This document shows, piece after piece, positions 49,774 through 62,753 of a DNA stretch of 64,000 nucleotides (positions are counted from its first letter, which is position 1; every line of letters starts with the position of its first letter). Made by a program: the position numbers and the translations under genes. This DNA comes from a virus (taxonomy: Duplodnaviria > Caudoviricetes): positions 2,744 through 66,743 of IMG/VR virus record IMGVR_UViG_3300033067_001435; one strand, written 5' to 3'. The notes below the pieces were generated by a model. That model made no database searches and was not told where the DNA came from. It was given only the letters and a program-made list of their open reading frames with translations.

Positions 49774-49824
49774 CAAATATACAAACAAATTAACCTTTGT
49801 CAACCCCATTAGGAACTTATTAAC
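49774..49824 (-). promoter_or_regulatory. Early promoter cassette
   Basis: GTTAATAAGTTCCTAA box, TTGACA-N16-TATATTTG. Confidence 0.85.
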
Positions 49825-49825
49825 A

Positions 49826-50236
49826 TTAAGTGCTCTGAAAGATTAATCTTTTTCTCATTGTAATTCGAAAGAAACAACCTTGCCCACAATACAGTTTAAA
49901 GGTTAAACCTTTATAAATGTATTTTTGAGTTAGAAACATCTCTTTACATGGTCTGGAATTGCCCTTTTCTGAAATAGCATCAAACAATAAATTAAACAAG
50001 TTTGAAGTAGTTAAAATTCCTTTTTTATAATATCTTTCCTCAAATCTCTTTTCCCATTCACATAAGTTAACCACAAATGATAGGAATTCAGAATCACTCA
50101 TAAGTGATATTTTATTCCGCATCACTTGAACCCTTTTCTCAGTGCGCTGGGATTGTCTAAACAACATATCAGCAAATGATGCTGCTGATTTAGTATATTC
50201 CGGGGAATTCATAAACTCAATTAATTTCTCATTCAT
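49826..50236 (-). CDS. Hypothetical protein
   Basis: Start moved to MNEKL; ends LYCGQGCFFRI. Confidence 0.6.
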   Translation of the reverse strand: MNEKLIEFMNSPEYTKSAASFADMLFRQSQRTEKRVQVMRNKISLMSDSEFLSFVVNLCEWEKRFEERYYKKGILTTSNLFNLLFDAISEKGNSRPCKEMFLTQKYIYKGLTFKLYCGQGCFFRITMRKRLIFQST

Positions 50237-50240
50237 GTTT

Positions 50241-50537
50241 TTATGATTTAAATTGATCAAGGAATACAATATCGTTTTTAACCTTAATACCACATTCTTC
50301 ACATACTTTGAAGAATTGTAACTGGGTTAATTTCAGGCCAAGTTCCCTTTTAAATACAGGGAATTTACAACCTATCCTTCTCCTATCGAATCGGTTAATC
50401 TCTTCGCAGACTCTTTTAACTTCGTTGTAGAAAGTGATGTTGTCTACTTCAACAACTGTCTTTGTTATTTTTATCATAACTGGCTTGCAAGTATTAATAG
50501 TGACAGTAAAAACAGTATGGCCAATAGATATGGCCAA
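50241..50537 (-). CDS. Hypothetical protein
   Basis: 98 aa. Confidence 0.5.
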   Translation of the reverse strand: MAISIGHTVFTVTINTCKPVMIKITKTVVEVDNITFYNEVKRVCEEINRFDRRRIGCKFPVFKRELGLKLTQLQFFKVCEECGIKVKNDIVFLDQFKS

Positions 50538-50552
50538 AAACTGCTTGGTTTC

Positions 50553-51584
50553 TTATAGTTTCGCATATTCAGGTTCTATCTTTTTCCAAATGTGTTTCGA
50601 GTAATCTTTTCCATCCAACATAGCAAAAAGAACTGATGCAATTAAAGGTGCATCTGGATGAACCAATCGGTTTACCTCTTCTGCAAAATCCTTTCGGCTA
50701 TAATTTTTAGTTAATAACCCAATAAACATAATTTCATGTATGGATTTCAACTTATGGTATTGATCAGTCAATAGTTCTTCGAAATCGTGAACCTTATCAT
50801 AAAATTCATCTGGAACATCATTTAAGATCGAAGAAACTGGTTCACCGGCTGCCAATGCTTCCCAAATGCTTGTAGTCGAAAGGTTAGTCATTTGACGATG
50901 AAGTTTAATGTAATCTTCAAACTTAATCTTACAACGTTGTCCATTACTGAACCTTACAACAAAACCTTCACTGTTTTTCCAGTTTAGTTGCTTGATGTTT
51001 TTCCAGTCAAGACCATCAAACTTTTTAACAACTAAATCTACATACATTGGAAATGCCTCTGTAAAGGCAGAAAGTTCTAACTCTTGACCTGATGTTGAAA
51101 ATATACCAGTTATAATTAAATTAGGTTCTGGATATGAAACTACTATCTGCTCAAAACCTATCAGTTCAAAACAGTATGTAAGTTTTCTATTCGGATATTT
51201 TATGAAAATTGGATACTTTTCAATTAACAACCTTTTAGCCTCAATTGCATAAGGAGATGTAAATGATCCACGAGATGCTACAATCATTTCTCCTGCATAC
51301 CAAAACACAAGGATTAATGATCCATCCAATTTTTCGAATACTTCAAATTGATCAGTAGCCTCATGCTTTTCCTCTTCCATGTTGAAAAACTTAGGAAAAC
51401 CTTTAGCAATAATTTTACCATCTATATCAGTCACAAGACCACGACACATCAATGTGATCTCATCCCAATGCCCACCATATTGAGTTTCTGGTGTATAGTT
51501 CCAGATAATCAATGGAAGGTTCGGGTGAACCTGATTGAAGATCAAGCCACGAGATTTGTAGTCGTTTAAAATATCAATATTCAT
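50553..51584 (-). CDS. rnl1: RNA ligase 1 (T4 Rnl1-like)
   Basis: CRGLV, FPKFFN, motif I EKLDGS, SRGSF, FELIG, EGFVV, KIKFEDY. Confidence 0.9.
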   Translation of the reverse strand: MNIDILNDYKSRGLIFNQVHPNLPLIIWNYTPETQYGGHWDEITLMCRGLVTDIDGKIIAKGFPKFFNMEEEKHEATDQFEVFEKLDGSLILVFWYAGEMIVASRGSFTSPYAIEAKRLLIEKYPIFIKYPNRKLTYCFELIGFEQIVVSYPEPNLIITGIFSTSGQELELSAFTEAFPMYVDLVVKKFDGLDWKNIKQLNWKNSEGFVVRFSNGQRCKIKFEDYIKLHRQMTNLSTTSIWEALAAGEPVSSILNDVPDEFYDKVHDFEELLTDQYHKLKSIHEIMFIGLLTKNYSRKDFAEEVNRLVHPDAPLIASVLFAMLDGKDYSKHIWKKIEPEYAKL

Positions 51585-51981
51585 CTTCTAAAATTTCGTT
51601 AAGGATTTCTAATGCAATTTTGTTTGAACGATCAGCCTCTTCTTTAGTTTGAAACCGGAACTGTTCAAAGAAGAAATAGTTCGGGAGAGCAACTGGTTGT
51701 CCATACAATTGAAAAATTTGTTCAGGAGTCCATTCGAACAACCTGTCATACATTTCACTGTATGATGGATGGTCATGCAGAATCGGAAATGACTCAAACA
51801 CGAACTTACATTTTTCAATGAAGTAGTTGTATTCAGTTTTAGTCCAAGAAATAAAGTCTTCAAAGGTTGAAAACCTTGACTCTTCTAAACTAATGTATTT
51901 GCCACTTAGTTGACTAAACTGATTTAAACAGTCTCGAAAAATGATTCCTGCAACAGTAGTTTTTGAATTATCACTTAGCAT
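51574..51981 (-). CDS. Hypothetical protein
   Basis: 135 aa. Confidence 0.55.
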   Translation of the reverse strand: MLSDNSKTTVAGIIFRDCLNQFSQLSGKYISLEESRFSTFEDFISWTKTEYNYFIEKCKFVFESFPILHDHPSYSEMYDRLFEWTPEQIFQLYGQPVALPNYFFFEQFRFQTKEEADRSNKIALEILNEILEDEY

Positions 51982-51992
51982 ACTTTTGTTAT

Positions 51993-52274
51993 TTATTTAA
52001 GTTCAGAAATAGGTCGTGCAACTATTCTGGTTTTCAAAAGTTTCCTTTCACCGGATTCCAGTTTTCCTGAGAAACTACTAACCCAATGTTCTTCGATGGT
52101 GATGGTTTTGTCAGTCTCTTTGAGAATTTTCCCAACTTTGGACTCATTACCATAATTCCACAACATGGTATCTCCTACTTTCAATTCACCAGCAGGAGTT
52201 CCTTTTACATTACCAATGCCTTGAAGATAAGTGGTTCCGGCTGGTTGTATTTTTGTTGATGGTGTGTATCTCAT
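51993..52274 (-). CDS. Hypothetical SH3-like protein
   Basis: Start moved to MRYTP because the ORF-track 5' part overlaps a promoter. Confidence 0.6.
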   Translation of the reverse strand: MRYTPSTKIQPAGTTYLQGIGNVKGTPAGELKVGDTMLWNYGNESKVGKILKETDKTITIEEHWVSSFSGKLESGERKLLKTRIVARPISELK

Positions 52275-52309
52275 GTTTTGCGTTTTGCCCTTGGGCTTTA
52301 AGTACCTGA

Positions 52310-52371
52310 CAAAGATATGGGCCTGATCCTTATGAACCAAGCCCATGCCTTATGGTTAACAATCTATTAAC
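52310..52371 (-). promoter_or_regulatory. Promoter cassette, upstream box shifted by 11 bp
   Basis: TTG-N20-TATCTTTG; ttaacaatctattaac at 52356. Confidence 0.7.
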
Positions 52372-52374
52372 TAT

Positions 52375-52503
52375 TTAATCATTCATACGATTATAATAAT
52401 CACGATCATACTTTGCTGCTTTTGCCAAGTAAATTTGACGTTTTACAAATTTAATGAGGGTTGGGCCAAGTACAATGGCCGCAATAAAATAAATATATGT
52501 CAT
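52375..52503 (-). CDS. Small membrane protein (42 aa)
   Basis: MTYIYFIAAIVLGPTLIK; start moved from 52566. Confidence 0.5.
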   Translation of the reverse strand: MTYIYFIAAIVLGPTLIKFVKRQIYLAKAAKYDRDYYNRMND

Positions 52504-52504
52504 G

Positions 52505-52645
52505 TTAGTCTGGTCGTTTAACTTTTGTTTGTGAGTTCGCTCCTGCATTGTAGGCGTTTTCAACAATAGCCTTGACAGAAGGGTTTGTGTTTAAATAATG
52601 CTGCCAATCGGCAGATAACGTTTTGAAATATTGTTGAAAAGTCAT
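52505..52645 (-). CDS. Small hypothetical protein (46 aa)
   Basis: Hand-translated MTFQQYFKTLSADWQHYL...; fills gap. Confidence 0.5.
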   Translation of the reverse strand: MTFQQYFKTLSADWQHYLNTNPSVKAIVENAYNAGANSQTKVKRPD

Positions 52646-52659
52646 AATGTGATATTTTG

Positions 52660-52700
52660 TTGTTTGGGCCAACCAAAATGATCAGCCCAAACAATTTTTT
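52660..52700 (+). terminator. Stem-loop with T-tract on + strand
   Basis: ttgtttgggc/gcccaaacaa then tttttt. Confidence 0.5.
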
Positions 52701-53499
52701 AATTCAGTACTGTAAATTCTGCATCTTGAACAGTTGCATAAGACATTGCCAATTCAAACAACTGCTGATTGAATACTGTATCAGCAACAGCAGATTTGAG
52801 CGGACGACCTTTCCGCTTCATTCCCTCAACTTTGAACCCTCCGATTGTCAAGGCTTCCTGAACACGGTTGTAGACCTTCCAGAGGCTTGAACCTTCATCT
52901 TCTGGTCGAAGTACCTCAGCAACATTTGAAACGTTTGCATCAGTCTTTACGTTGTCCCAGCGAAGTGCCAAAGCCTGACGGGTAAAGGCTTCGATTTGGC
53001 TGTCAGACAGTGTGATAGCAGCCATTTCTTTTTGTTTTGCAACAGCAATTTCTAAATTTTTGAGGAATCCCATTGCAACCTCAAAGGCTGCTTCTGCTGG
53101 TGTTCCCATATGTCTAACAGAAAATTGACCAAATTCTTTGGTTGCGATAACCAAGCCATTCGAACAGATTATTCTGTAAATTCCCACATAAACTTTTAAT
53201 GGTGAGGTTCCATCGTAGGAGTTCATAATCACGATTTCTGGTTTGAGCCATTCATCGTTTAATTCTACAGGGTTAATAGCCCGCATTTTAACTACGTGTT
53301 TACCTCTCCCTTCTGTGTCTTTACCTTTCCGGTTTTTCTTTACCGAAATAGAGACCAACTCAAAAATTCCCAGTTCTAAAATTTCTTCGATCAAAACTCT
53401 GGTGTCCATTTGTTGGTAATATTTAGACATTACCTTTGTGGTTTGAATCGCTGGGTTCAGAACATTAATGTCAAAGTTTACTACTGCGGATGGATTCAT
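52699..53499 (-). CDS. DUF932/DUF945-family protein
   Basis: PEIVIMNSYDGTS...GIYRIICSNGLV, VRHMG, LWKVYNRVQE. Confidence 0.85.
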   Translation of the reverse strand: MNPSAVVNFDINVLNPAIQTTKVMSKYYQQMDTRVLIEEILELGIFELVSISVKKNRKGKDTEGRGKHVVKMRAINPVELNDEWLKPEIVIMNSYDGTSPLKVYVGIYRIICSNGLVIATKEFGQFSVRHMGTPAEAAFEVAMGFLKNLEIAVAKQKEMAAITLSDSQIEAFTRQALALRWDNVKTDANVSNVAEVLRPEDEGSSLWKVYNRVQEALTIGGFKVEGMKRKGRPLKSAVADTVFNQQLFELAMSYATVQDAEFTVLN

Positions 53500-53545
53500 G
53501 TCAAAAATTGTTTAGTGTGATTGACTGTTTGTCTGTTTGATGAAG

Positions 53546-53596
53546 CAAAGATACAAACAAGTTAAGACTTGTCAAGTCTATTAACAACCTATTAAC
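53546..53596 (-). promoter_or_regulatory. Early promoter cassette
   Basis: GTTAATAGGTTGTTAA box, TTGACA-N16-TATCTTTG. Confidence 0.85.
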
Positions 53597-53943
53597 TAAA
53601 GAGTCGCCTTAAATTGTTTAAGGTTAACAAGTTTTAATTTTTTACTAACTTCCATAATCTGCCTTTTGTTTTCAGTAGTAGCCTTTTCAAGTCGATCTTT
53701 TTCGGCTAATAGTGGCTTAAATTCCTCAAATATAGGCTCATTTTCTGGTATTGGGAGAAAGTAATTCTTTTCATAGTATTCGGAAATTTGATTATCTCCT
53801 GATACAAATCGCTTGTCCTTCCTAATTCCAGTTATAAGGACTCTATTTCTTTCGTTCGAAATAGGAAATGGATCATCAAATGGAGTATCCCCGCAATATA
53901 AAGCATAAAAAGGTTTAAATGATGCATTTTCCTTTATCCACAT
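53596..53943 (-). CDS. Hypothetical protein
   Basis: 115 aa. Confidence 0.55.
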   Translation of the reverse strand: MWIKENASFKPFYALYCGDTPFDDPFPISNERNRVLITGIRKDKRFVSGDNQISEYYEKNYFLPIPENEPIFEEFKPLLAEKDRLEKATTENKRQIMEVSKKLKLVNLKQFKATL

Positions 53944-54104
53944 ATCAATGGCTTTTTTACAGCAGAAAAGGATTTTTTATCCTTGATCTCTGTATCATAG
54001 TAATCTGACACTGATTTAAAGGTTTCATCACTTAGATTAAATGATATTTCAAAATTGCGATATACCTCAATAGGTACATCAGAACGATCTTTGTATTCAA
54101 ACAT
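53934..54104 (-). CDS. Small hypothetical protein (56 aa)
   Basis: Hand-translated MFEYKDRSDVPIEVY... Confidence 0.5.
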   Translation of the reverse strand: MFEYKDRSDVPIEVYRNFEISFNLSDETFKSVSDYYDTEIKDKKSFSAVKKPLICG

Positions 54105-54123
54105 GTTTTTTGGTTTTAAAGTG

Positions 54124-54489
54124 TTAATTATACATCGCTTGGTATTGCCCTATAATTGCGGTAGCCATTCCATCAGCAATAAGTTGAAGAAGTTCAACCA
54201 AAGTCTCATCCTTAGCCAGCCACAATTCTCCATATTCGGCTACCAACTCTTTGTTTTGGAGACAACCATTCATCCCTTCTGTAAGTTCACTCCAAAGCAA
54301 TTCTTTGGTGAATATGGCACTTTCTACCTTTTCAGATAGAACTTCACCTGTAGTCATTATAATGGCGTTGGTAATGAACGTTGAGTACTTGTCCATGTCA
54401 TCATTACTTATCAAAATGCCCCACATGTGAGCAATTGAAAGTTTAGCATACAAGGTTTCTATTTCTTCTTTTGAAACGAGATGATTCAT
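54124..54489 (-). CDS. Hypothetical protein
   Basis: 121 aa. Confidence 0.55.
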   Translation of the reverse strand: MNHLVSKEEIETLYAKLSIAHMWGILISNDDMDKYSTFITNAIIMTTGEVLSEKVESAIFTKELLWSELTEGMNGCLQNKELVAEYGELWLAKDETLVELLQLIADGMATAIIGQYQAMYN

Positions 54490-54692
54490 AGTTTTTTACT
54501 TAATTTAGCAATGATGACGAGAAAAGTTAGTAAAAGAACAATTGGAAAGGTTAGAGGTGCTGTAAAAATAGCACCAATTATATTAACTCTGTATTTTGAT
54601 ACAAGGTGAAGATACTTATCTTTCATCATACCATAAACCACAAAGGAATATAATACGATAGTACAAGTACAGTAAATTAATAAAAGAATCAT
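54486..54692 (-). CDS. Two-TM membrane protein
   Basis: Hydrophobic, 68 aa. Confidence 0.55.
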   Translation of the reverse strand: MILLLIYCTCTIVLYSFVVYGMMKDKYLHLVSKYRVNIIGAIFTAPLTFPIVLLLTFLVIIAKLSKKL

Positions 54693-54889
54693 TCTGGTAA
54701 TGTTATGGATTTTAGTTGAAGAACTGACTTCATTTTGTTCAGGTTGATTTGACCAATGAAATCGTATATTACTTTTTCTGAGATGTAATACACTCCTTCA
54801 ACTTCTATCAAGTCACCTGTTTCAATGTTAACGTGGAAACAGGCTTGCCGGATGTAATCAATGGCTGGAATTAAACTTATGTAAACCAT
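54689..54889 (-). CDS. Hypothetical protein
   Basis: Start moved to MVYIS (54931 overlaps -7 box). Confidence 0.5.
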   Translation of the reverse strand: MVYISLIPAIDYIRQACFHVNIETGDLIEVEGVYYISEKVIYDFIGQINLNKMKSVLQLKSITLPE

Positions 54890-54928
54890 GTCAGTGTCAG
54901 TTATTTTACTCCTTGTGGGTTTGTGATG

Positions 54929-54959
54929 CAAAGATACAAACTTTATTTTAGTTTGTCAA
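54929..54959 (-). promoter_or_regulatory. Early promoter
   Basis: TTGACA-N17-TATCTTTG; partial upstream box. Confidence 0.8.
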
Positions 54960-54973
54960 TAGAAAATAAAAAC

Positions 54974-55243
54974 TTATTTTAAAGTTCCTTGTATGGTTTT
55001 TTCGTTTACAATCCTAAAACGTTGGTTTGTCATAGACTTGTGAAATGTACAAGAGTCTGTTTTATTGAATGTTGCAAACAAATCTACCATAACAACTTGT
55101 CCAATTGTATCCATTTGAAGGTAGACTCCTTTATCAAATTTTTCGCCTCGAATGGCTACATTCTGATCAAACATCAATTTCAAGGCTTCATAAAAATTAA
55201 GGGTATATTCCATTTTAAATTGTGGTTTGAGTGATTGATTCAA
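54974..55243 (-). CDS. Small protein, possibly DUF2829/Tad2-like
   Basis: LNFYEALKLM...AIRGEKFDKGVYL...MTNQRFRIV. Confidence 0.45.
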   Translation of the reverse strand: MNQSLKPQFKMEYTLNFYEALKLMFDQNVAIRGEKFDKGVYLQMDTIGQVVMVDLFATFNKTDSCTFHKSMTNQRFRIVNEKTIQGTLK

Positions 55244-55976
55244 CTTTATAAACAGTTAATACATGGTTTCTGGCTTCAAAGCAGGAATCGTAGATTACAC
55301 CATCAACAACACAAGAAATGTGATTTTTAGTGCCAATTACAAAGATTCCAGTTTTAGGAAGTTTATTTATGATATTACCAATAACAGAACCTTTAAATGG
55401 CTTTTGATGGTTTTGCATCCATTTACTAAAGTAAGTTTCAAAAGACAAACCACGAGATTCAAAAATCCCTTTCCAGTCATTGAGCCATTCGTTTCTTTGC
55501 CGATCTTCTCTCCAACCCTTTTCGTATAGAAGATCATAGGACTCTTTGTATGTAATATTCAGACACTTTGCAACTGTCCAAATTTGGCAATCACCTTTTT
55601 TATCAATACCGGCTTCTTTGACAACACTTTGAGAAGTTTTAACATAATCGTAGGAATAACGAGATTTAACCTTTTTAACAATCTTAGGTTCGTTTTCCCG
55701 GTAAAACCGTTTGAACTTAATTCCCCTAACACATTTCCTACCCCGTCCCCAACCATATTCAGATTCACTGAAAAGTACGTTGTACCAACGACCTTTCAAT
55801 TCAACAACCCAAGCATCTGTGAAATCATAGTCTGCATCAAAATTATTCTTGATGAGACCTTCCTGAACAATAACAGCATCTTTAAATTTAGGTTGTTCTG
55901 TGAAGAATCTCTCTAATGCTCCTTGTGTTCTCCAACTTCTGAGATTGTTATCCTTAGTCAATTCTAAAAGTGTCAT
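55215..55976 (-). CDS. Phage protein with putative Cys-His-Asp (papain-like) C-domain
   Basis: GDCQIWTVA...Y..L, NHISCVVDGVIYDS. Confidence 0.55.
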   Translation of the reverse strand: MTLLELTKDNNLRSWRTQGALERFFTEQPKFKDAVIVQEGLIKNNFDADYDFTDAWVVELKGRWYNVLFSESEYGWGRGRKCVRGIKFKRFYRENEPKIVKKVKSRYSYDYVKTSQSVVKEAGIDKKGDCQIWTVAKCLNITYKESYDLLYEKGWREDRQRNEWLNDWKGIFESRGLSFETYFSKWMQNHQKPFKGSVIGNIINKLPKTGIFVIGTKNHISCVVDGVIYDSCFEARNHVLTVYKVESITQTTI

Positions 55977-56003
55977 AGATTGTTAATTGAATGAATGATA
56001 TGA

Positions 56004-56054
56004 CAAATATAAGGTCTATTTTTGAAATGTCAATACCATTAACAAATTATTTGC
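56004..56054 (-). promoter_or_regulatory. Early promoter cassette
   Basis: TTGACA-N16-TATATTTG; ttaacaaattatttgc box at 35-bp offset. Confidence 0.8.
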
Positions 56055-56598
56055 TTTTGTTCTTTTTGATGTTTTCTAGGTGATCAACATCTTGAGGAGT
56101 ACCCAGAAAGTTAACCTGTTCAAATAATTGTATTAACACATCATCACTAATTGGATCATCATAGTATGAGTAATGAACATCCCAACGAGTGCCATTAGGA
56201 TCGGTTATATCCTTTTGAGCATAACGATCAAGGTCTTTGAAATAAATTAGAGTACCATTGTAATTCACAGGAAATTCATTGTTCATATAAGAGAATATTG
56301 TGGTAATTCTCTGTTTACCATCAATTACTTTCAATGTACGATGTGTTTTATAAACTTGTTCTACAACTACAAATTTCAAAGTAGATGCACCTCGAAGTAA
56401 GGACAATATGAATTGCTCTTTTTGTAAATCAGTCCAAACCAAACCACGTTGTAAGTTACAATCATAAGTAGGCAAGTAAACATCAAAATCAATTGAATTG
56501 TATAATTTATTTGCCTTTAATCGGGTGAAACTGTCAATGTATAATCCCTGATTAATGGAGTGTTTATATTTTGGCTGAAAGAAATCTCGTGTAAACAT
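56047..56598 (-). CDS. Stand-alone DUF262 (GmrSD/ParB-like N-terminal) domain protein
   Basis: LQRGLVWT, FILSLLRG, IDGKQRITT, FEQVN. Confidence 0.85.
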   Translation of the reverse strand: MFTRDFFQPKYKHSINQGLYIDSFTRLKANKLYNSIDFDVYLPTYDCNLQRGLVWTDLQKEQFILSLLRGASTLKFVVVEQVYKTHRTLKVIDGKQRITTIFSYMNNEFPVNYNGTLIYFKDLDRYAQKDITDPNGTRWDVHYSYYDDPISDDVLIQLFEQVNFLGTPQDVDHLENIKKNKSK

Positions 56599-56602
56599 GG
56601 AA

Positions 56603-57112
56603 TTATTGCTTAATGGTGATCGAAAGGTTTGGGAATATGTTCTGTAAAGTGTTTACAAGGAATTCTAATTCCATCTCTTTAATTTTGTATCCACTGTTAT
56701 ATGGTCGGCATTTATCCGAAATCCAATCAAAGTTGAACCAATTAGTGTAGATAGAATTATCTTTCTCAAAAGACATTCCAGTGATAGTAACACCATTTTC
56801 TTTATTGGCTTGAATATTTTCTTTGATCTCTTTCGAAACCCTGATGACTTTTGGAATCATCTTTTTAACCTTTTCGTATTGCTCAATATCACCCTGAGAA
56901 AGGAGATTGTTGTTAAGCAGGAAGGTTTCAAGGCAGTCAAAACCGATGTTGAATTTTTCACCTTTTGGATTTTCGACAGTTGCAATATTTGCTATCAGTT
57001 TACCACAGTTGTCACAAGTGCAACCAAAGCCTTCCAACAGAGGAATGTATTTTTTGTCAACTACTGTGTAGTTAACGTTAAGTGAAAGTTTGCGCTGAAT
57101 GATGTTTTTCAT
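56603..57112 (-). CDS. Zinc-binding hypothetical protein
   Basis: CDNCGKLI...IGFDC; start moved to MKNII (ORF-track start overlaps promoter). Confidence 0.6.
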   Translation of the reverse strand: MKNIIQRKLSLNVNYTVVDKKYIPLLEGFGCTCDNCGKLIANIATVENPKGEKFNIGFDCLETFLLNNNLLSQGDIEQYEKVKKMIPKVIRVSKEIKENIQANKENGVTITGMSFEKDNSIYTNWFNFDWISDKCRPYNSGYKIKEMELEFLVNTLQNIFPNLSITIKQ

Positions 57113-57163
57113 AAGATGTCTTGTTTGTATTGACCGTTTTGTTCCCCTTGTGAGTTGTTTCAA

Positions 57164-57214
57164 CAAAGATACAAACAAGTTAAGGATTGTCAAGTAGGTT
57201 AACAACCTATTAAC
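57164..57214 (-). promoter_or_regulatory. Early promoter cassette
   Basis: GTTAATAGGTTGTTAA, TTGACA-N16-TATCTTTG. Confidence 0.85.
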
Positions 57215-57216
57215 AT

Positions 57217-57969
57217 TTACCAAGTATCAATACCATCATTGGTTTTAAAAACAATTCGATCTTCAAAGAGCCAAAAACTAACAGTTCTATTTTTTTGATG
57301 ATCTTCAAACCCTATAACCTTTGCATCATTACCATGATGGTTAATGTGATAGTGAGTAGCCGAGTATTTGTAGATGGTATGATCGTGGGTAGTATCAATC
57401 CTATTATAAAGTTCATCTACCTTATAAGCAGGAACACCGAATAACTCAGTTAAATGCTTTGCAGTTTCACCCCAAATATCATCATCAAATGAAATTAACT
57501 CAGTGTCAAAAACAAAAAAATCTCGTTCATCGTATATACCCGGCCTAAGTTCATTATACCTGTTAAAATACATATTTGAATAATCTAAGGTTAGAGAATC
57601 ATCTGTAAGGATAGTCCTAATATCAACCTCAAATAATTCATTGTATTTGTATTTACACAATAATGATTTAAAATCAGTTACAAGATTTATAGTATTAACA
57701 CCATCAGTATTATCCCGGTTTGTCGTTTGCCTGCGAATTTTGCCATCTTTTTCAGTAAACCTTTTCGCCCAATCAGCAAATAATCCATAGAAATATTCAC
57801 CAGTTGAATCTATGATCTTCTTATATTTGTCTGATAACAGAAGTGAATGTTGTACATCACAAATATACTGGGTTTTTGTTTGACGAGTTATTCGGCGAAG
57901 CCAATTAGATTGAAACCCTTCGTTATGAATCCACTGAGTGTGGAGATATTTACCAACTAAATTTTCCAT
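57217..57969 (-). CDS. Hypothetical protein
   Basis: 250 aa. Confidence 0.6.
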   Translation of the reverse strand: MENLVGKYLHTQWIHNEGFQSNWLRRITRQTKTQYICDVQHSLLLSDKYKKIIDSTGEYFYGLFADWAKRFTEKDGKIRRQTTNRDNTDGVNTINLVTDFKSLLCKYKYNELFEVDIRTILTDDSLTLDYSNMYFNRYNELRPGIYDERDFFVFDTELISFDDDIWGETAKHLTELFGVPAYKVDELYNRIDTTHDHTIYKYSATHYHINHHGNDAKVIGFEDHQKNRTVSFWLFEDRIVFKTNDGIDTW

Positions 57970-57988
57970 GTTTTATTGTTTTGAATGT

Positions 57989-58309
57989 TTACCAGCACAT
58001 GTAATCACAACGGAGTATAATATCTCCATTATCATCAGAGTCGGATTTTGAAACACTTCCTGCACCCATAACGTATTCTATCCAATAGAAAACATCTGCC
58101 AATTGCTTGTTTTCAATGATAGAATGTGGCACTCGCATAGTTACAGACTTGTAAGGGATTTCATCCTTAAAGTAAGGACAGTCGTCTTGACTTCTGCCAA
58201 TTATCATCCCATTATTTCCTTGTATATATGCACCCCACACATCTTCTTTAGTAAGGGTAATTGCAACTGGGTAGCGAGGTTCGGAGATTTGAAAAGTGAT
58301 GTTTTCCAT
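57989..58309 (-). CDS. Hypothetical protein
   Basis: 106 aa, first after promoter. Confidence 0.6.
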   Translation of the reverse strand: MENITFQISEPRYPVAITLTKEDVWGAYIQGNNGMIIGRSQDDCPYFKDEIPYKSVTMRVPHSIIENKQLADVFYWIEYVMGAGSVSKSDSDDNGDIILRCDYMCW

Positions 58310-58364
58310 GAGAAGTCTTGTTTTAAATGTTTGACTGTTTGATCCCCTTGTGGGTTTGATAGAA

Positions 58365-58415
58365 CAAAGATACTAACCTTTTAACCTTTGTCAAGTCCGT
58401 TAGGAACTTATTAAC
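58365..58415 (-). promoter_or_regulatory. Early promoter cassette
   Basis: GTTAATAAGTTCCTAA, TTGACA-N16-TATCTTTG. Confidence 0.85.
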
Positions 58416-58442
58416 AAAAATGGCCAACATTGCTGTCAGCCA
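58416..58442 (-). terminator. Intrinsic terminator
   Basis: TGGCTGACA-GCAA-TGTTGGCCA then TTTTT. Confidence 0.75.
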
Positions 58443-58472
58443 TTCCCATTAAACCAAATATATGTCAAACGT

Positions 58473-59300
58473 TCAATAATTGAAATTTTTTGGATTCAGA
58501 TTTGTCCTTAAAAATGCTCCAAAATCTTCCCGATATTCGAAGTTAAAATCCATCGCAAAGGACAATTCATCAGTGAGTTCATTTAACTTATTTTTCCAGT
58601 TATTAAATGCTGTCAAAACAGCAGGATCATATAACCCAGCATTTTGAAATCGTTCAGTCAATTGAGTAGAAAGGTTCAACCATGATTTAATGCTTGGGCG
58701 ATCAAAGAACAACTGAATGCTTTCATCAAGTGTAATAGTATTGTTCAATTTGGCTTGCTGTCCAGAGATTCGAAGCCTTAATTTTTCCTCATTTTGGATG
58801 AATGCGTCCAGTACTTCTTTGCAACGTTGCACTCGTTCTGGTCGTGTTAGATCATCCCAATCATAAGCATTCAATGTTCTCGCATATGCACTAAATGCAG
58901 TATTTTCGAATACATTGTTTAAGTCTGTGATGTATTGAAGAACTACATTTTTAGTGAAATTTTCTCCATTATAATCCTTGTGGAGGGCTTCGAAAATCTC
59001 ATTGAATTTCTTTAGTTTGCTCATTGGTTCAGGTTTTGTTTCGATGATAGGTTCACTGTTTACTGGTTTTCCAGTAGATTTTTCTTTACACAATTCTAAG
59101 ATTGCATTGGTGATTGAGTTATTCTCTCGCCGAATTTCTTCATTAGAAGAACCTCCATTCCATTCAGCACGTTTATTTGCAGAATAACGTGACTTCAATA
59201 GAAGTACATCATTTGCATGATATGGTTCAATTATTTGTTCGAGTCGATCCAATGCTGTTTCAATGCGACCTTGACTCAGAAATTCTCTTACTATTTGCAT
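58473..59300 (-). CDS. Protein with N-terminal EAD11-like effector-associated domain
   Basis: IVREFLSQGRIETALDRL...DVLLLKSRY...G.SS.EEIRRENNSITNAILEL; helical C-domain. Confidence 0.65.
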   Translation of the reverse strand: MQIVREFLSQGRIETALDRLEQIIEPYHANDVLLLKSRYSANKRAEWNGGSSNEEIRRENNSITNAILELCKEKSTGKPVNSEPIIETKPEPMSKLKKFNEIFEALHKDYNGENFTKNVVLQYITDLNNVFENTAFSAYARTLNAYDWDDLTRPERVQRCKEVLDAFIQNEEKLRLRISGQQAKLNNTITLDESIQLFFDRPSIKSWLNLSTQLTERFQNAGLYDPAVLTAFNNWKNKLNELTDELSFAMDFNFEYREDFGAFLRTNLNPKNFNY

Positions 59301-59308
59301 AATTTTAT

Positions 59309-59779
59309 TTAGGTTAAAATTCTGGTGATTGATGGTGAAATGTTTATCATTCCAAACCGATCTATTAATTTAGACCTAAATTCGGAATATTCAAGTATTG
59401 TATCTTCTACTTTTTTATCTAACTCTTTTGGAGACATGATCCAAGTTATGGTATCATTATCATCAGTTATGAAACTGTCAGTTGGGTCTAACTCATCAGT
59501 TTCAGTATTGTATATTGAAATATTTATATACCCTTCATCTGTACCAAATGTAACAGTTTGATGGAACACATTCATTTCACTGATTAAACCTTGAATGAAT
59601 TCCAAGTCGAGATGTTTAACCTGCCGTCTAAGTGGTTGTCCGCATTGAATGCAAAACAATGCATTAGGACCATATTCTAAATTTGGATGATTTTTACAAC
59701 CAAAATATTCTACAGTTGCTTCTGGTTTATCTGGTACTTGAATTAGTACACTCTTATATAAATAAATTGATCTTGACAT
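59309..59779 (-). CDS. Hypothetical protein with zinc ribbon
   Basis: GCKNHP...FCIQCGQPL. Confidence 0.6.
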   Translation of the reverse strand: MSRSIYLYKSVLIQVPDKPEATVEYFGCKNHPNLEYGPNALFCIQCGQPLRRQVKHLDLEFIQGLISEMNVFHQTVTFGTDEGYINISIYNTETDELDPTDSFITDDNDTITWIMSPKELDKKVEDTILEYSEFRSKLIDRFGMINISPSITRILT

Positions 59780-59780
59780 A

Positions 59781-60008
59781 TTATTTCAGCCAGTTTAGGA
59801 ATCTCATAACGAAATCCAGTTTTTCTTTTTTGAAGGTTTTATTTTTTGGATTGAATATATAACCATTAATTTTAATCAACCCATTAACTACTACAAGGTA
59901 ATTTGATTTTGATTTAACATAATCTGGTAACTCAGTTCGTACACCATCTACTTCAATGTAGTTGTCTTCCTGATTAATGGTATGACCATTCTGTGTTATT
60001 TTGTTCAT
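59781..60008 (-). CDS. Hypothetical protein
   Basis: 75 aa. Confidence 0.55.
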   Translation of the reverse strand: MNKITQNGHTINQEDNYIEVDGVRTELPDYVKSKSNYLVVVNGLIKINGYIFNPKNKTFKKEKLDFVMRFLNWLK

Positions 60009-60010
60009 AA

Positions 60011-60241
60011 TTAATTGTGGCTTTTTGAAAATACAAGCATTAATGACAATAGTTGTTGTGGTGTAACTGATATAACTCCTGTATCATAAACTTTTTCAAA
60101 GGTGTCATCATCTGTCAGATAAGCATACATCTGAATTTGATTGTTTTCAAAAAAGGTTATCCAGTGGGTTATGGTATTGGATAAACGGACATGACCGTAA
60201 CCTTTAGGTTTATATCCAAATTGAGTTATAGACTTTTGCAT
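60011..60241 (-). CDS. Hypothetical protein
   Basis: 76 aa. Confidence 0.55.
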   Translation of the reverse strand: MQKSITQFGYKPKGYGHVRLSNTITHWITFFENNQIQMYAYLTDDDTFEKVYDTGVISVTPQQLLSLMLVFSKSHN

Positions 60242-60384
60242 ACAAATATTAATAATGTTAATAACAATAATAGTAGAGTTATAACCAAAGGAAGACTTCT
60301 ATTTGGTTCTGTTTTAACAGAAGGTAATTTCTTCTTTAATCTACCTTCTGTATGAGTTTGATATTTGTATCTAAACCTGCCCAT
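60226..60384 (-). CDS. Small tail-anchored membrane protein (52 aa)
   Basis: Hand-translated; basic N-terminus, C-terminal LVITLLLLLLTLLIFV. Confidence 0.5.
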   Translation of the reverse strand: MGRFRYKYQTHTEGRLKKKLPSVKTEPNRSLPLVITLLLLLLTLLIFVCKSL

Positions 60385-60390
60385 TTAACA

Positions 60391-60954
60391 TTAAGGTTTT
60401 ACCCAATCAGGTTTAAAGTAATACAAGGCTTCACGATTGTCGTACTCAGCAGGTTCAAAGGTGACATTGCTAACATCAATCTTAACTTCTTTCTTGATGC
60501 GTTTCAATGCATCCTTTTCAGTTTTAGCAAAGAGTGAACCTTGACGTTTCCCATCAATGAACCAAATGAATCGCTTTGTTGCCGGATCATTGTAGTACCC
60601 ACATGATATTGGGTCATAGAAGATAACTTCAAGGTTTTGAGTGTTCAAAAAACGAACAAAGGAATTTGGAGTGTCTTCATAAAGGTTCAACGAAACGTAA
60701 TCTTGATGTTTGCGCATGAACTTTGCAATCAACTCAATGACTTCTAGTCTTGAAGATTGAATTTGAAAAGTTGCACCACGAAAATCCTTTTCATCACCAG
60801 CCTTTAAAAATTCAACAGTGCAAGAACTAGCAGCAACAGAACTGTCCAGATAACCTTTCCGGCTAAAAATAATGTCCATTGGAAGGGATGTAGCCCATTC
60901 GTATTTTTTACGAGGTTCGTAAACACGGACTCCAAGAATCTTTAAATCTGACAT
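60391..60954 (-). CDS. Hypothetical protein
   Basis: Start moved to MSDLK. Confidence 0.6.
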   Translation of the reverse strand: MSDLKILGVRVYEPRKKYEWATSLPMDIIFSRKGYLDSSVAASSCTVEFLKAGDEKDFRGATFQIQSSRLEVIELIAKFMRKHQDYVSLNLYEDTPNSFVRFLNTQNLEVIFYDPISCGYYNDPATKRFIWFIDGKRQGSLFAKTEKDALKRIKKEVKIDVSNVTFEPAEYDNREALYYFKPDWVKP

Positions 60955-61001
60955 AGGAAAAGAATTTAGTGTGTGATTGAATTCCTTGCGGATTAACAAA
61001 A

Positions 61002-61052
61002 CAAAGATACAAACAAATTAACCATTGTCAAGTTCATTGGGAACTTATTAAC
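61002..61052 (-). promoter_or_regulatory. Early promoter cassette
   Basis: GTTAATAAGTTCCCAA, TTGACA-N16-TATCTTTG. Confidence 0.85.
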
Positions 61053-61055
61053 ACA

Positions 61056-61295
61056 TTAAATTATGTGGCTCCAAGAGATTAAGTAGTATGAATCATTTCG
61101 GTCTTCTTCACTTTTTACAACAAAACCATCAAACTATAACCTTTTAATTGAGTTAGGAGTCAAATAATGTGTATATGTTGTATAGTTCCCTGCTTTACAG
61201 GCATGTTTTATTTTAAGATAAGCATCCTCTAAATCAGGAGTTATCATAGTAGAGATTGTATTTGTTGTTATTTTATTTGCTTCCTTAGCAGTCAT
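61056..61295 (-). pseudogene. Small phage gene with in-frame TAG at codon 54 (nonsense allele or readthrough)
   Basis: MTAKEANK...IKHACKAG...IKRL*FDGFVV...YYLISWSHII; TAG at 61134-61136. Confidence 0.55.
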
Positions 61296-61311
61296 ATCAT
61301 TGTAGTTTTAA

Positions 61312-61425
61312 TTATTTAAAAAGGAGGGATAGTAGACCAATAGCACCATATATCAGCAATAGTAGTCCTATTAATGTTAATAGTGACATTAGCATTTCAA
61401 CTAATGGATTGTAGTTTTTACGCAT
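61312..61425 (-). CDS. Small single-TM protein (37 aa)
   Basis: Hand-translated MRKNYNPLVEMLMSLLTLIGLLLLIYG... Confidence 0.45.
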   Translation of the reverse strand: MRKNYNPLVEMLMSLLTLIGLLLLIYGAIGLLSLLFK

Positions 61426-61435
61426 TTTAAGTTAT

Positions 61436-61723
61436 TTAATCTTCGAAATTGTCTTTATCTTTGTTTCGCCCCGATACAATTAAAACAAGGAGTACAATTG
61501 GCCAAATTGACATAGTCAATACCATTGTTCTCATTACATCAAAATATCGGGCCGGAGTCATTATCCTGTAAGACGGCATTCGCATATTAGCATAAACCAA
61601 ATACACAACAAAGCCAATAGTATACCACCACAACATAAACTCATAGGTAATTGGAGTGAAATTTGCTATCAGCAAGATTATTACGCCAACTACAATAAAA
61701 GCCTGAAAAATAGATTTAGTCAT
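61436..61723 (-). CDS. Three-TM membrane protein
   Basis: Hydrophobic helices. Confidence 0.6.
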   Translation of the reverse strand: MTKSIFQAFIVVGVIILLIANFTPITYEFMLWWYTIGFVVYLVYANMRMPSYRIMTPARYFDVMRTMVLTMSIWPIVLLVLIVSGRNKDKDNFED

Positions 61724-62018
61724 TTTTGAGTGATTTTAATTGTTGATAATTATATTCAGCCCAAACCTTATAATCTTTCAGTTTAGAAAGACCAAAAGGT
61801 TCGTTAATTTGATAGATCATGTTTCTGTCAGCCATTTTCTTTGTACCAGTTCTCTTAATGGTCAACTTACCTTTAATAATTTCGGCATATATTTCAAAGT
61901 CAATTATTAATTCATCAGACTCACTAACCACTTTACCATAATAAGCCCTAAACAATGGACCAAACTCAGAGGTATCTGGCAGATAGTAAATGACTGTTAT
62001 GAAATCACCTTTTTCCAT
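61716..62018 (-). CDS. Hypothetical protein
   Basis: Start moved to MEKGD. Confidence 0.55.
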   Translation of the reverse strand: MEKGDFITVIYYLPDTSEFGPLFRAYYGKVVSESDELIIDFEIYAEIIKGKLTIKRTGTKKMADRNMIYQINEPFGLSKLKDYKVWAEYNYQQLKSLKND

Positions 62019-62020
62019 GT

Positions 62021-62185
62021 TTACCAAGTTTGATAAAGTTTACCATCAAGTGTTTCGTTGGTTGGTGTAATCACCTTCCAGTTCCAAGGAATATTACAGA
62101 GGTTTTGAAACCACATCTTACACTCAAGAAGAGTATAACAAGTTTTTACTGTAATTGATTCAGACTTACTTTGAATTTGATACAT
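62021..62185 (-). CDS. Small hypothetical protein (54 aa)
   Basis: Hand-translated MYQIQSKSES... Confidence 0.45.
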   Translation of the reverse strand: MYQIQSKSESITVKTCYTLLECKMWFQNLCNIPWNWKVITPTNETLDGKLYQTW

Positions 62186-62192
62186 GATCTTA

Positions 62193-62669
62193 TTATTTTG
62201 TCAACAAAGTTTCAATCAAGTCTTTGCTGAGATGCATGATAACCTTATTGGAATACTGAGTTCCATAAAGTGCAACTCTTGGATCAATGTGATATTCGTT
62301 ACAGAGACCAATAATTGTGTTTATTATTGTGGTTTGTTCTTGCTCATCATAAGGAATAGTAACATATCCTAAACGGTTGTATTTACTACTCCATTCATAA
62401 GGGAGTTTGAAAGCAATTTCGTTTACTCGATTACCTTGTTCTATCAAGAACGTTTTCTGCAAACTGGCATTTGTAGTGTTTTTTACTTTTTTGCCGCCAA
62501 TAACATATCGCATTGCTTTTGCAGCACAATCAACACCAAAATAAGTAACAAGACCATCAGTAAGACATTCAAGAGCAACAGTTCTTTTAAGTCCTTTTCG
62601 GCCACAGCACTCACATTCTTCTTTTTCAGAAATGCCAAGAAATTTATATAATTTTTCTGCTTGTTCCAT
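62193..62669 (-). CDS. Zinc-binding hypothetical protein
   Basis: CECCGRKGL...YFGVDCA; start moved to MEQAE (ORF-track start crosses promoter). Confidence 0.6.
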   Translation of the reverse strand: MEQAEKLYKFLGISEKEECECCGRKGLKRTVALECLTDGLVTYFGVDCAAKAMRYVIGGKKVKNTTNASLQKTFLIEQGNRVNEIAFKLPYEWSSKYNRLGYVTIPYDEQEQTTIINTIIGLCNEYHIDPRVALYGTQYSNKVIMHLSKDLIETLLTK

Positions 62670-62702
62670 GTGATGTATTGTTTTTAAACAATTTTGATAG
62701 AA

Positions 62703-62753
62703 CAAAGATACGAACCTTTTAACCTTTGTCAAGTCTATTAGGAATTTATTAAC
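62703..62753 (-). promoter_or_regulatory. Early promoter cassette
   Basis: GTTAATAAATTCCTAA, TTGACA-N16-TATCTTTG. Confidence 0.85.

Follow-up and report, generated by a model that had tools for sequence, protein, structure and literature searches.

The gene, its transcription signals and its surroundings

The gene considered here lies on the minus strand of a viral DNA stretch of 64,000 nucleotides (hereafter the window, meaning the whole stretch that was analysed) and encodes a protein in which an EAD11 domain is joined through a linker to an all-helical domain that apparently occurs in phages only. The gene, the parts of its product and the transcription signals on its two sides are located as follows:

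58473..59300, minus strand: EAD11 gene, an open reading frame with ATG start, 275 aa (stop included), composed of EAD11, linker and phage-only helical domain
59082..59291, minus strand: EAD11 domain, residues 4-73, four helices (PF19964 match, reciprocal profile matches, pLDDT 86-95)
59025..59078, minus strand: linker, residues 75-92, predicted disordered (pLDDT <50), with length and sequence that vary across the family alignment
58500..59018, minus strand: C-terminal all-helical domain, residues 95-267, predicted as two helical bundles (about 94-189 and 190-271)
58476..58502, minus strand: extreme C-terminal tail NLxPKNFNY, residues 267-275, conserved in the family alignment (pLDDT <50 at 272-275)
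58411..58452, minus strand: terminator-like hairpin with a GCAA tetraloop (58430-58433) and a U-run, from RNA folding
61002..61031, minus strand: hybrid early-type promoter TTGACA-N16-TAnnTTTG, the nearest one upstream of the EAD11 gene
58365..58394, minus strand: next copy of the TTGACA-N16-TAnnTTTG cassette, just past the terminator, which starts the following transcription unit

The window belongs to an IMG/VR virus record of 66,743 bases that is estimated to be 36% complete. Its GC content is 31-35%, and 62 of its 63 open reading frames of at least 120 aa are on the minus strand. The PHROGs matches in the window are to an SbcCD-like nuclease, baseplate wedge proteins and an Rnl1-type RNA ligase. 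By baseplate wedge protein, Microcystis phage Mel-JY01 (47%) and Flavobacterium phage immuto (39%) are closest among cultured phages; by RNA ligase it is Tenacibaculum phage pT24. The stretch is one fragment of the genome of a large T4-like phage, the host of which is probably a member of the Bacteroidota.

Downstream of the stop codon the minus-strand RNA folds into the GCAA-loop hairpin, U-run included, at -21.2 kcal/mol (z -3.06, none of 200 shuffles as good), in agreement with the GNRA-loop terminator of its own that the earlier note had assigned to the gene; a simple consensus terminator scan did not list this hairpin. The promoter at 61002-61031 probably drives a five-gene unit (60999..58473) in which the EAD11 gene is the last. 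It is one of eight TTGACA-N15/16-TAnnTTTG promoters found at 49.7-62.7 kb (49774-62732), all of which are on the minus, that is the coding, strand, where 0.2 were expected. The TAnnTTTG part is what we take to be the -7 element of Bacteroidota sigma-A promoters, and in T4-like phages host-type promoters normally mark early genes. By this analogy we infer that the EAD11 gene is expressed early and read from host-type promoters. Several of the eight promoters have the spacer AAGGTTAA...GTTTG in common. On contigs of the source runs the cassette at 58365-58416 also occurs next to other sequence, which means that the phage genome or related genomes contain it more than once. Among the sequencing runs listed in a search for the gene there was no RNA run, and the source study was the sole real match; contigs from these runs gave no further information about divergence or habitat.

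The genes around the EAD11 gene are mostly orphans, the exceptions being a small GmrSD_N/DUF262 protein and a DUF932 protein. The former (56047-56598, minus strand, 183 aa) consists only of the N-terminal GmrSD_N/DUF262 (ParB-like nuclease) domain (49.6 bits), belongs to the early accessory region in which the EAD11 gene lies, and has its own promoter cassette. A marine Tara Oceans scaffold that carries a member of the same protein family (L002) shares with the window an RNA ligase of 62% identity, the gene of the DUF932 protein (52699-53499, minus strand, versus L002:12217-13005; 77% identity), which is the most similar gene of this common region, and further genes, with the gene order retained. 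The genes that directly flank the EAD11 gene differ between the two. The synteny with differing flanks indicates that the EAD11 gene is accessory and belongs to a variable early region of related phages. An orphan reading frame of 156 aa with two CxxC pairs (zinc-ribbon-like; 59309-59779, minus strand) ends 8 bp before the EAD11 gene, and it is not a conserved partner, since it has no homologue on the syntenic scaffold. No NTPase core adjoins the EAD11 gene in the window or on that scaffold, and a search for EAD11 in the four closest complete phage genomes found it in none of them.

The protein family and its EAD11 domain

The exhaustive phmmer search of 1.84 billion representatives resulted in 24 proteins at E <=1e-3, with about 20 full-length relatives of 245-302 aa. 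The family comprises about 20 clusters, the two-domain layout is present in all of them, and all members are metagenomic; several are located on contigs of 83-224 kb (P0003, 223 kb; P0007, 139 kb; P0002 and P0005, about 83 kb). No relatives were found in 50,697 GenBank phages by DNA and tblastn searches, in IMG/VR by pattern scan (patterns A1, P0007, P0012 and P0019), or by scan of the A3 pattern over one genome per GTDB species. A word-index search, which is a weak test, gave no longer proteins with the EAD11 part or the C-terminal domain.

The Pfam EAD11 model (PF19964) matches residues 4-73 of the phage protein with E 2.4e-13 and 50.3 bits, the curated gathering cut-off being 26 bits, and the match covers positions 6-78 of the 80 in the model. 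The assignment of the first ~75 aa to EAD11, which had been made by eye, was thus upheld by the HMM search, and the domain is genuine. In the six-frame search of the whole 66,743-base virus record it is present as a single copy (54.1 bits). The control search of 14 well-known genomes with PF19964 gave nothing above the cut-off, so EAD11 is not a generic motif. In the reciprocal direction, a profile built from the N-terminal parts of the phage family alone retrieves cellular EAD11 domains at E 4e-21 to 6e-6.

The AlphaFold2 model, obtained with a 19-row family alignment, has a mean pLDDT of 82.9 and shows four helices within residues 2-75, disorder at 75-92, an all-helical region at 95-267 and disorder of the last four residues, which agrees with the description of the protein in the earlier note as a linker and a helical domain following the EAD11 part. 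This part is predicted to be small, non-catalytic, all-helical and N-terminal. In the wide VIA search with residues 1-82 the best 50 matches were helical bundles of a generic kind (best Z 8.6). These 50 contained no death-fold chain, a result that is still compatible with a relationship to that fold. The modelled domain has four helices versus the six-helix bundle of the death-like fold superfamily.

Such generic structural matches are what would be expected if the protein had no link to immunity and its EAD11-family four-helix module were an ordinary oligomerisation or interaction part, for example in host takeover or regulation. The same reading is favoured by the most divergent N-terminal parts of the family, which fall under the PF19964 cut-off (22.5 bits in P0009 and 14.7 bits in P0010, the C-terminal domains of which are still 45-48% identical to the query), and by the absence of EAD11 from most of the sampled potential hosts. 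It is weakened by the EAD11 match at E <0.01 in 18 of the 19 aligned family members, by the immune type of the cellular EAD11 domains that the phage-family profile retrieves, with E down to 4e-21, and by the empty result in the control genomes, and we regard it as unlikely.

The nearest EAD11 domains outside the phage family, with 38-41% identity, are those of EAD11-CHAT, EAD11-TIR and COR-A/COR-B-EAD11-CHAT proteins. Full-length relatives of the EAD11-CHAT protein were found in Bacteroidota MAGs, one of Saprospirales among them, and three Bacteroidota MAGs with such relatives contain 19, 5 and 8 EAD11 matches. In the 5 Mb Saprospirales MAG (G001; L008, L050, L053, L056, L059), several of the 19 matches are clustered on one contig (C23). 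The cellular EAD11 proteins examined include EAD11-CHAT (n=3), EAD11-TIR-AAA_35, which is a STAND-like NTPase (n=2), and SIR2-EAD11, and in several further ones the second domain matches nothing recognised. In a Bacteroidota MAG (L007:3382-5607) SIR2-EAD11 (minus strand) and EAD11-CHAT (plus strand) form a divergent, slightly overlapping pair. This compact natural arrangement, coupled by EAD11, could be used as a test system.

Effector-associated domains (EADs) are understood here in the sense of Kaur, Burroughs, Iyer and Aravind (eLife 2020, PMC7159879; eLife 2021, PMC8195603), as small adaptors for which homotypic binding and a linking of effectors with NTPase cores are predicted (PMC7159879). 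The cellular fusions of EAD11 to CHAT, TIR, SIR2 and STAND fit this pattern; the homotypic binding of EAD11 is itself a prediction (PMC7159879), and the EAD-wired conflict systems are known from comparative genomics only. The term "EAD11" is absent from the main text of both papers, and in the literature search neither the EAD11 domain nor EADs encoded by phages came up in any paper. Among evenly sampled Bacteroidota genomes only 4 of 301 (about 1%) exceeded the PF19964 cut-off, though the carriers have 2-19 copies each, and to call EAD11 frequent in Bacteroidota, as was done before, is therefore too strong.

The C-terminal domain and the differing evolution of the two parts

For the C-terminal domain, neither Pfam nor PADLOC gave a match. 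The only PHROGs match of the phage protein, to an endolysin at E 0.075, is at chance level, the sequence-profile search of PDB gave nothing below E 0.18, and Foldseek against PDB and BFVD gave nothing at E <=1e-3. The VIA matches of the domain are generic helical bundles with Z <8, while in the ESM Atlas no usable feature match and no look-alike was found (structure TM <=0.38). No polar residue of the domain is invariant among 19 sequences, and conservation is highest at L127, P202, W207 and further positions of hydrophobic or aromatic character, which argues against an enzyme.

Outside the phages, five EAD11-rich genomes and 401 sampled Bacteroidota genomes were searched with the C-domain profile, and neither set gave a convincing match. 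In nine of the 401 there were weak matches (17-22 bits, per-genome E 2e-4 to 7e-3), which were attributed to chance or helical composition. One weak match is a 307-aa reading frame (L071:1153-2076, minus strand) located between genes similar to the methylase and specificity subunits of a type I R-M system. Reading frames of 312-328 aa in three other Bacteroidota genomes resemble it and match positions 83-145 of the profile with about 18-20 bits; these repeated matches were also judged to be chance. The C-terminal part is apparently a new, phage-only and non-enzymatic helical domain family.

The end of the protein is a separate conserved element. Its consensus across the family is NLx(P/I)KNFNY, and 12 of 19 members retain the KNFN(Y) end (13 when the His variant is counted). 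The conservation of a tail that is predicted to be disordered suggests a short docking motif.

The two parts of the protein evolve differently. Among the eight closest members mean identity is 25% in the EAD11 part versus 51% in the C-domain, and the C-domain is the more similar in all 28 pairs; in the 82%-identical sibling the values are 66% and 89%. The relation is not uniform, since P0007 shares 46-49% identity with P0014/P0015 in EAD11 and only 25-29% in the C-domain, while towards P0001/P0003/P0006 this pattern is reversed and the C-domain is the more similar part. In AU tests the C-domain data rejected the EAD11 grouping (p 0.011), as the EAD11 data did the C-domain grouping (p 0.008), the groups having been named after the data were seen. 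These comparisons fit an EAD11 part that is exchanged, or in rapid turnover, on a stable payload, and that may be read as a specificity module tracking variable host partners. The faster change of EAD11 could also be due to relaxed constraint rather than to an arms race.

A tree built jointly from the phage and the cellular EAD11 domains gave no resolved branching, and a single origin of the phage family was neither established nor rejected (p-AU 0.10). This phylogeny lends no support to the proposal of the earlier note that the domain is host-derived, or to any one direction of transfer.

Possible function and comparison with known systems

The presence of a genuine EAD11 domain in a phage, its EAD11-CHAT and EAD11-TIR relatives in Bacteroidota and the early-type operon make interference with the EAD11 wiring of the host a reasonable proposal. 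The explanation that we prefer, with a probability of roughly 0.45, is that the protein acts as an early anti-defence or hijack factor docking on host EAD11 hubs. The EAD11 domain would be an address tag on an early accessory protein of a T4-like phage, and this tag would dock homotypically onto host TIR-STAND hubs and onto CHAT, TIR or SIR2 effectors. The phage-only helical domain would take the position that a killing enzyme has in the host proteins, with the result that effector recruitment or activation may be blocked or diverted and abortive-infection signalling may fail. The C-domain and the conserved tail would have a part in such a scheme.

Several observations restrict this explanation. 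The original proposal was that of a decoy, and as a bare decoy it does not stand: two thirds of the protein is the C-domain, which is better conserved than the adaptor (51% versus 25%) and so must have an activity of its own. For decoy action alone a domain of 180 aa of this kind would be superfluous, which counts against our preferred explanation, and the adaptor-only decoy reading was dropped because of the conserved second domain in the 275-aa protein. The absence of EAD11 from the four closest complete phage relatives is a further point against it. With EAD11 in about 1% of the sampled Bacteroidota genomes, most of the potential hosts may lack the target. A co-fold weighs neither for nor against the explanation: the phage EAD11 (residues 1-78) was paired with the EAD11 domain from the closest cellular EAD11-CHAT protein, used in place of the true host partner, and the pair scored 0.05 against a mark of 0.32.

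The conserved second domain together with the reassorted EAD11 part suggests a function beyond simple capping. One form that this may take is a modular targeted inhibitor, in which a constant phage-only payload with its docking tail would be combined with an exchangeable EAD11 tag, swapped among phages to follow host variants. We treat this form as doubtful; if true, it would represent a new anti-defence class and would give a first functional access to immunity wired by EAD11, until now a matter of prediction.

In a related scheme enzymes of the host would be put to use by the phage: the C-domain or the tail would select a target, and the EAD11 tag would bring a host CHAT protease, or an NADase of the TIR or SIR2 type, to it. 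The domain evidence for it is the same as for the preferred explanation, and the conserved C-domain with the conserved, predicted-disordered tail resembles the second binding surface of a bridging adaptor. This scheme has no candidate target, the literature search found no precedent for it, and recruitment of a suicide enzyme would be risky for a phage, so that it has to be considered very improbable.

The protein could also belong to a conflict module owned by the phage itself, as an EAD11-coupled effector or sensor with the EAD11-bearing core elsewhere in the phage or in the host, used for example in superinfection exclusion or competition; the C-domain would then represent a novel domain with an effector or recognition function. 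In favour of this possibility, exclusion genes are common in the variable early regions of T4-like phages, and the C-domain is the better conserved part. As the record is 36% complete, a phage-encoded EAD11 partner is possible and may sit in the missing 64% of the genome; the partner may also be in the host. The layout, with an N-terminal EAD and another domain, is that of cellular EAD-coupled effectors (PMC7159879). On the other side, there is only one EAD11 copy in the 66.7 kb and no NTPase core beside the gene in the window or on the syntenic scaffold, and the C-domain has neither an enzymatic signature nor an invariant polar residue and was not seen among cellular EAD11 proteins. A phage-owned module is rather improbable.

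Compared with the EAD11 family, the N-terminal 75 residues of the phage protein are a bona fide member. With the cellular EAD11-CHAT, EAD11-TIR, SIR2-EAD11 and EAD11-TIR-AAA_35 proteins it shares the adaptor (38-41% identity to the nearest of them), the size class and the layout of N-terminal EAD11, linker and second domain; the difference is in the second domain, for which the cellular proteins have a recognisable enzyme of cell death or immunity, or else an NTPase, and the phage family a phage-restricted helical domain with no catalytic signature. From the EAD-coupled conflict systems in general the protein differs in being phage-encoded and in a C-domain that is not a recognised effector or signalling domain in Pfam, PADLOC, PDB or BFVD; in the 36% of the genome that the record covers there is a single EAD11, with no NTPase core nearby.

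Among viruses of eukaryotes, vFLIP and the COP/POP-type proteins are adaptor-only inhibitors, and viral CARD-, PYD- and DED-only proteins act in the way that is proposed for the phage EAD11 protein. The likeness is one of concept only, in that a virus copies a homotypic immune adaptor by which signalling assemblies are capped or poisoned, while the domain superfamily and the hosts differ. The poxvirus pyrin-only proteins have been cited as the eukaryotic parallel of a phage inhibitor, pCARD (PMC10312443).

[quoted passage not shown] The strategy, which the earlier note did not know to be described, accordingly has a precedent in this adaptor-only inhibitor (PMC10312443). Both cases have a T4-like phage, a host-type immune homotypic adaptor without an enzyme and the same proposed action, interference with effector activation through the adaptor. 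They differ in that pCARD is adaptor-only, uses CARD and was demonstrated by experiment, while the protein described here combines EAD11 with a conserved domain of 180 aa. The decoy principle is thus already known, and what is new is another adaptor family, EAD11, in a protein that is not adaptor-only. The phage EAD11 protein is a natural probe of the predicted EAD11 coupling: if it binds and silences EAD11-linked TIR, CHAT, SIR2 or STAND proteins, the predicted homotypic coupling would be confirmed, and if it is inhibitory, the adaptor-mimic principle would extend from the CARD of pCARD to another adaptor family. Even if the anti-defence idea fails, the protein still represents a well-defined new phage-only domain family.
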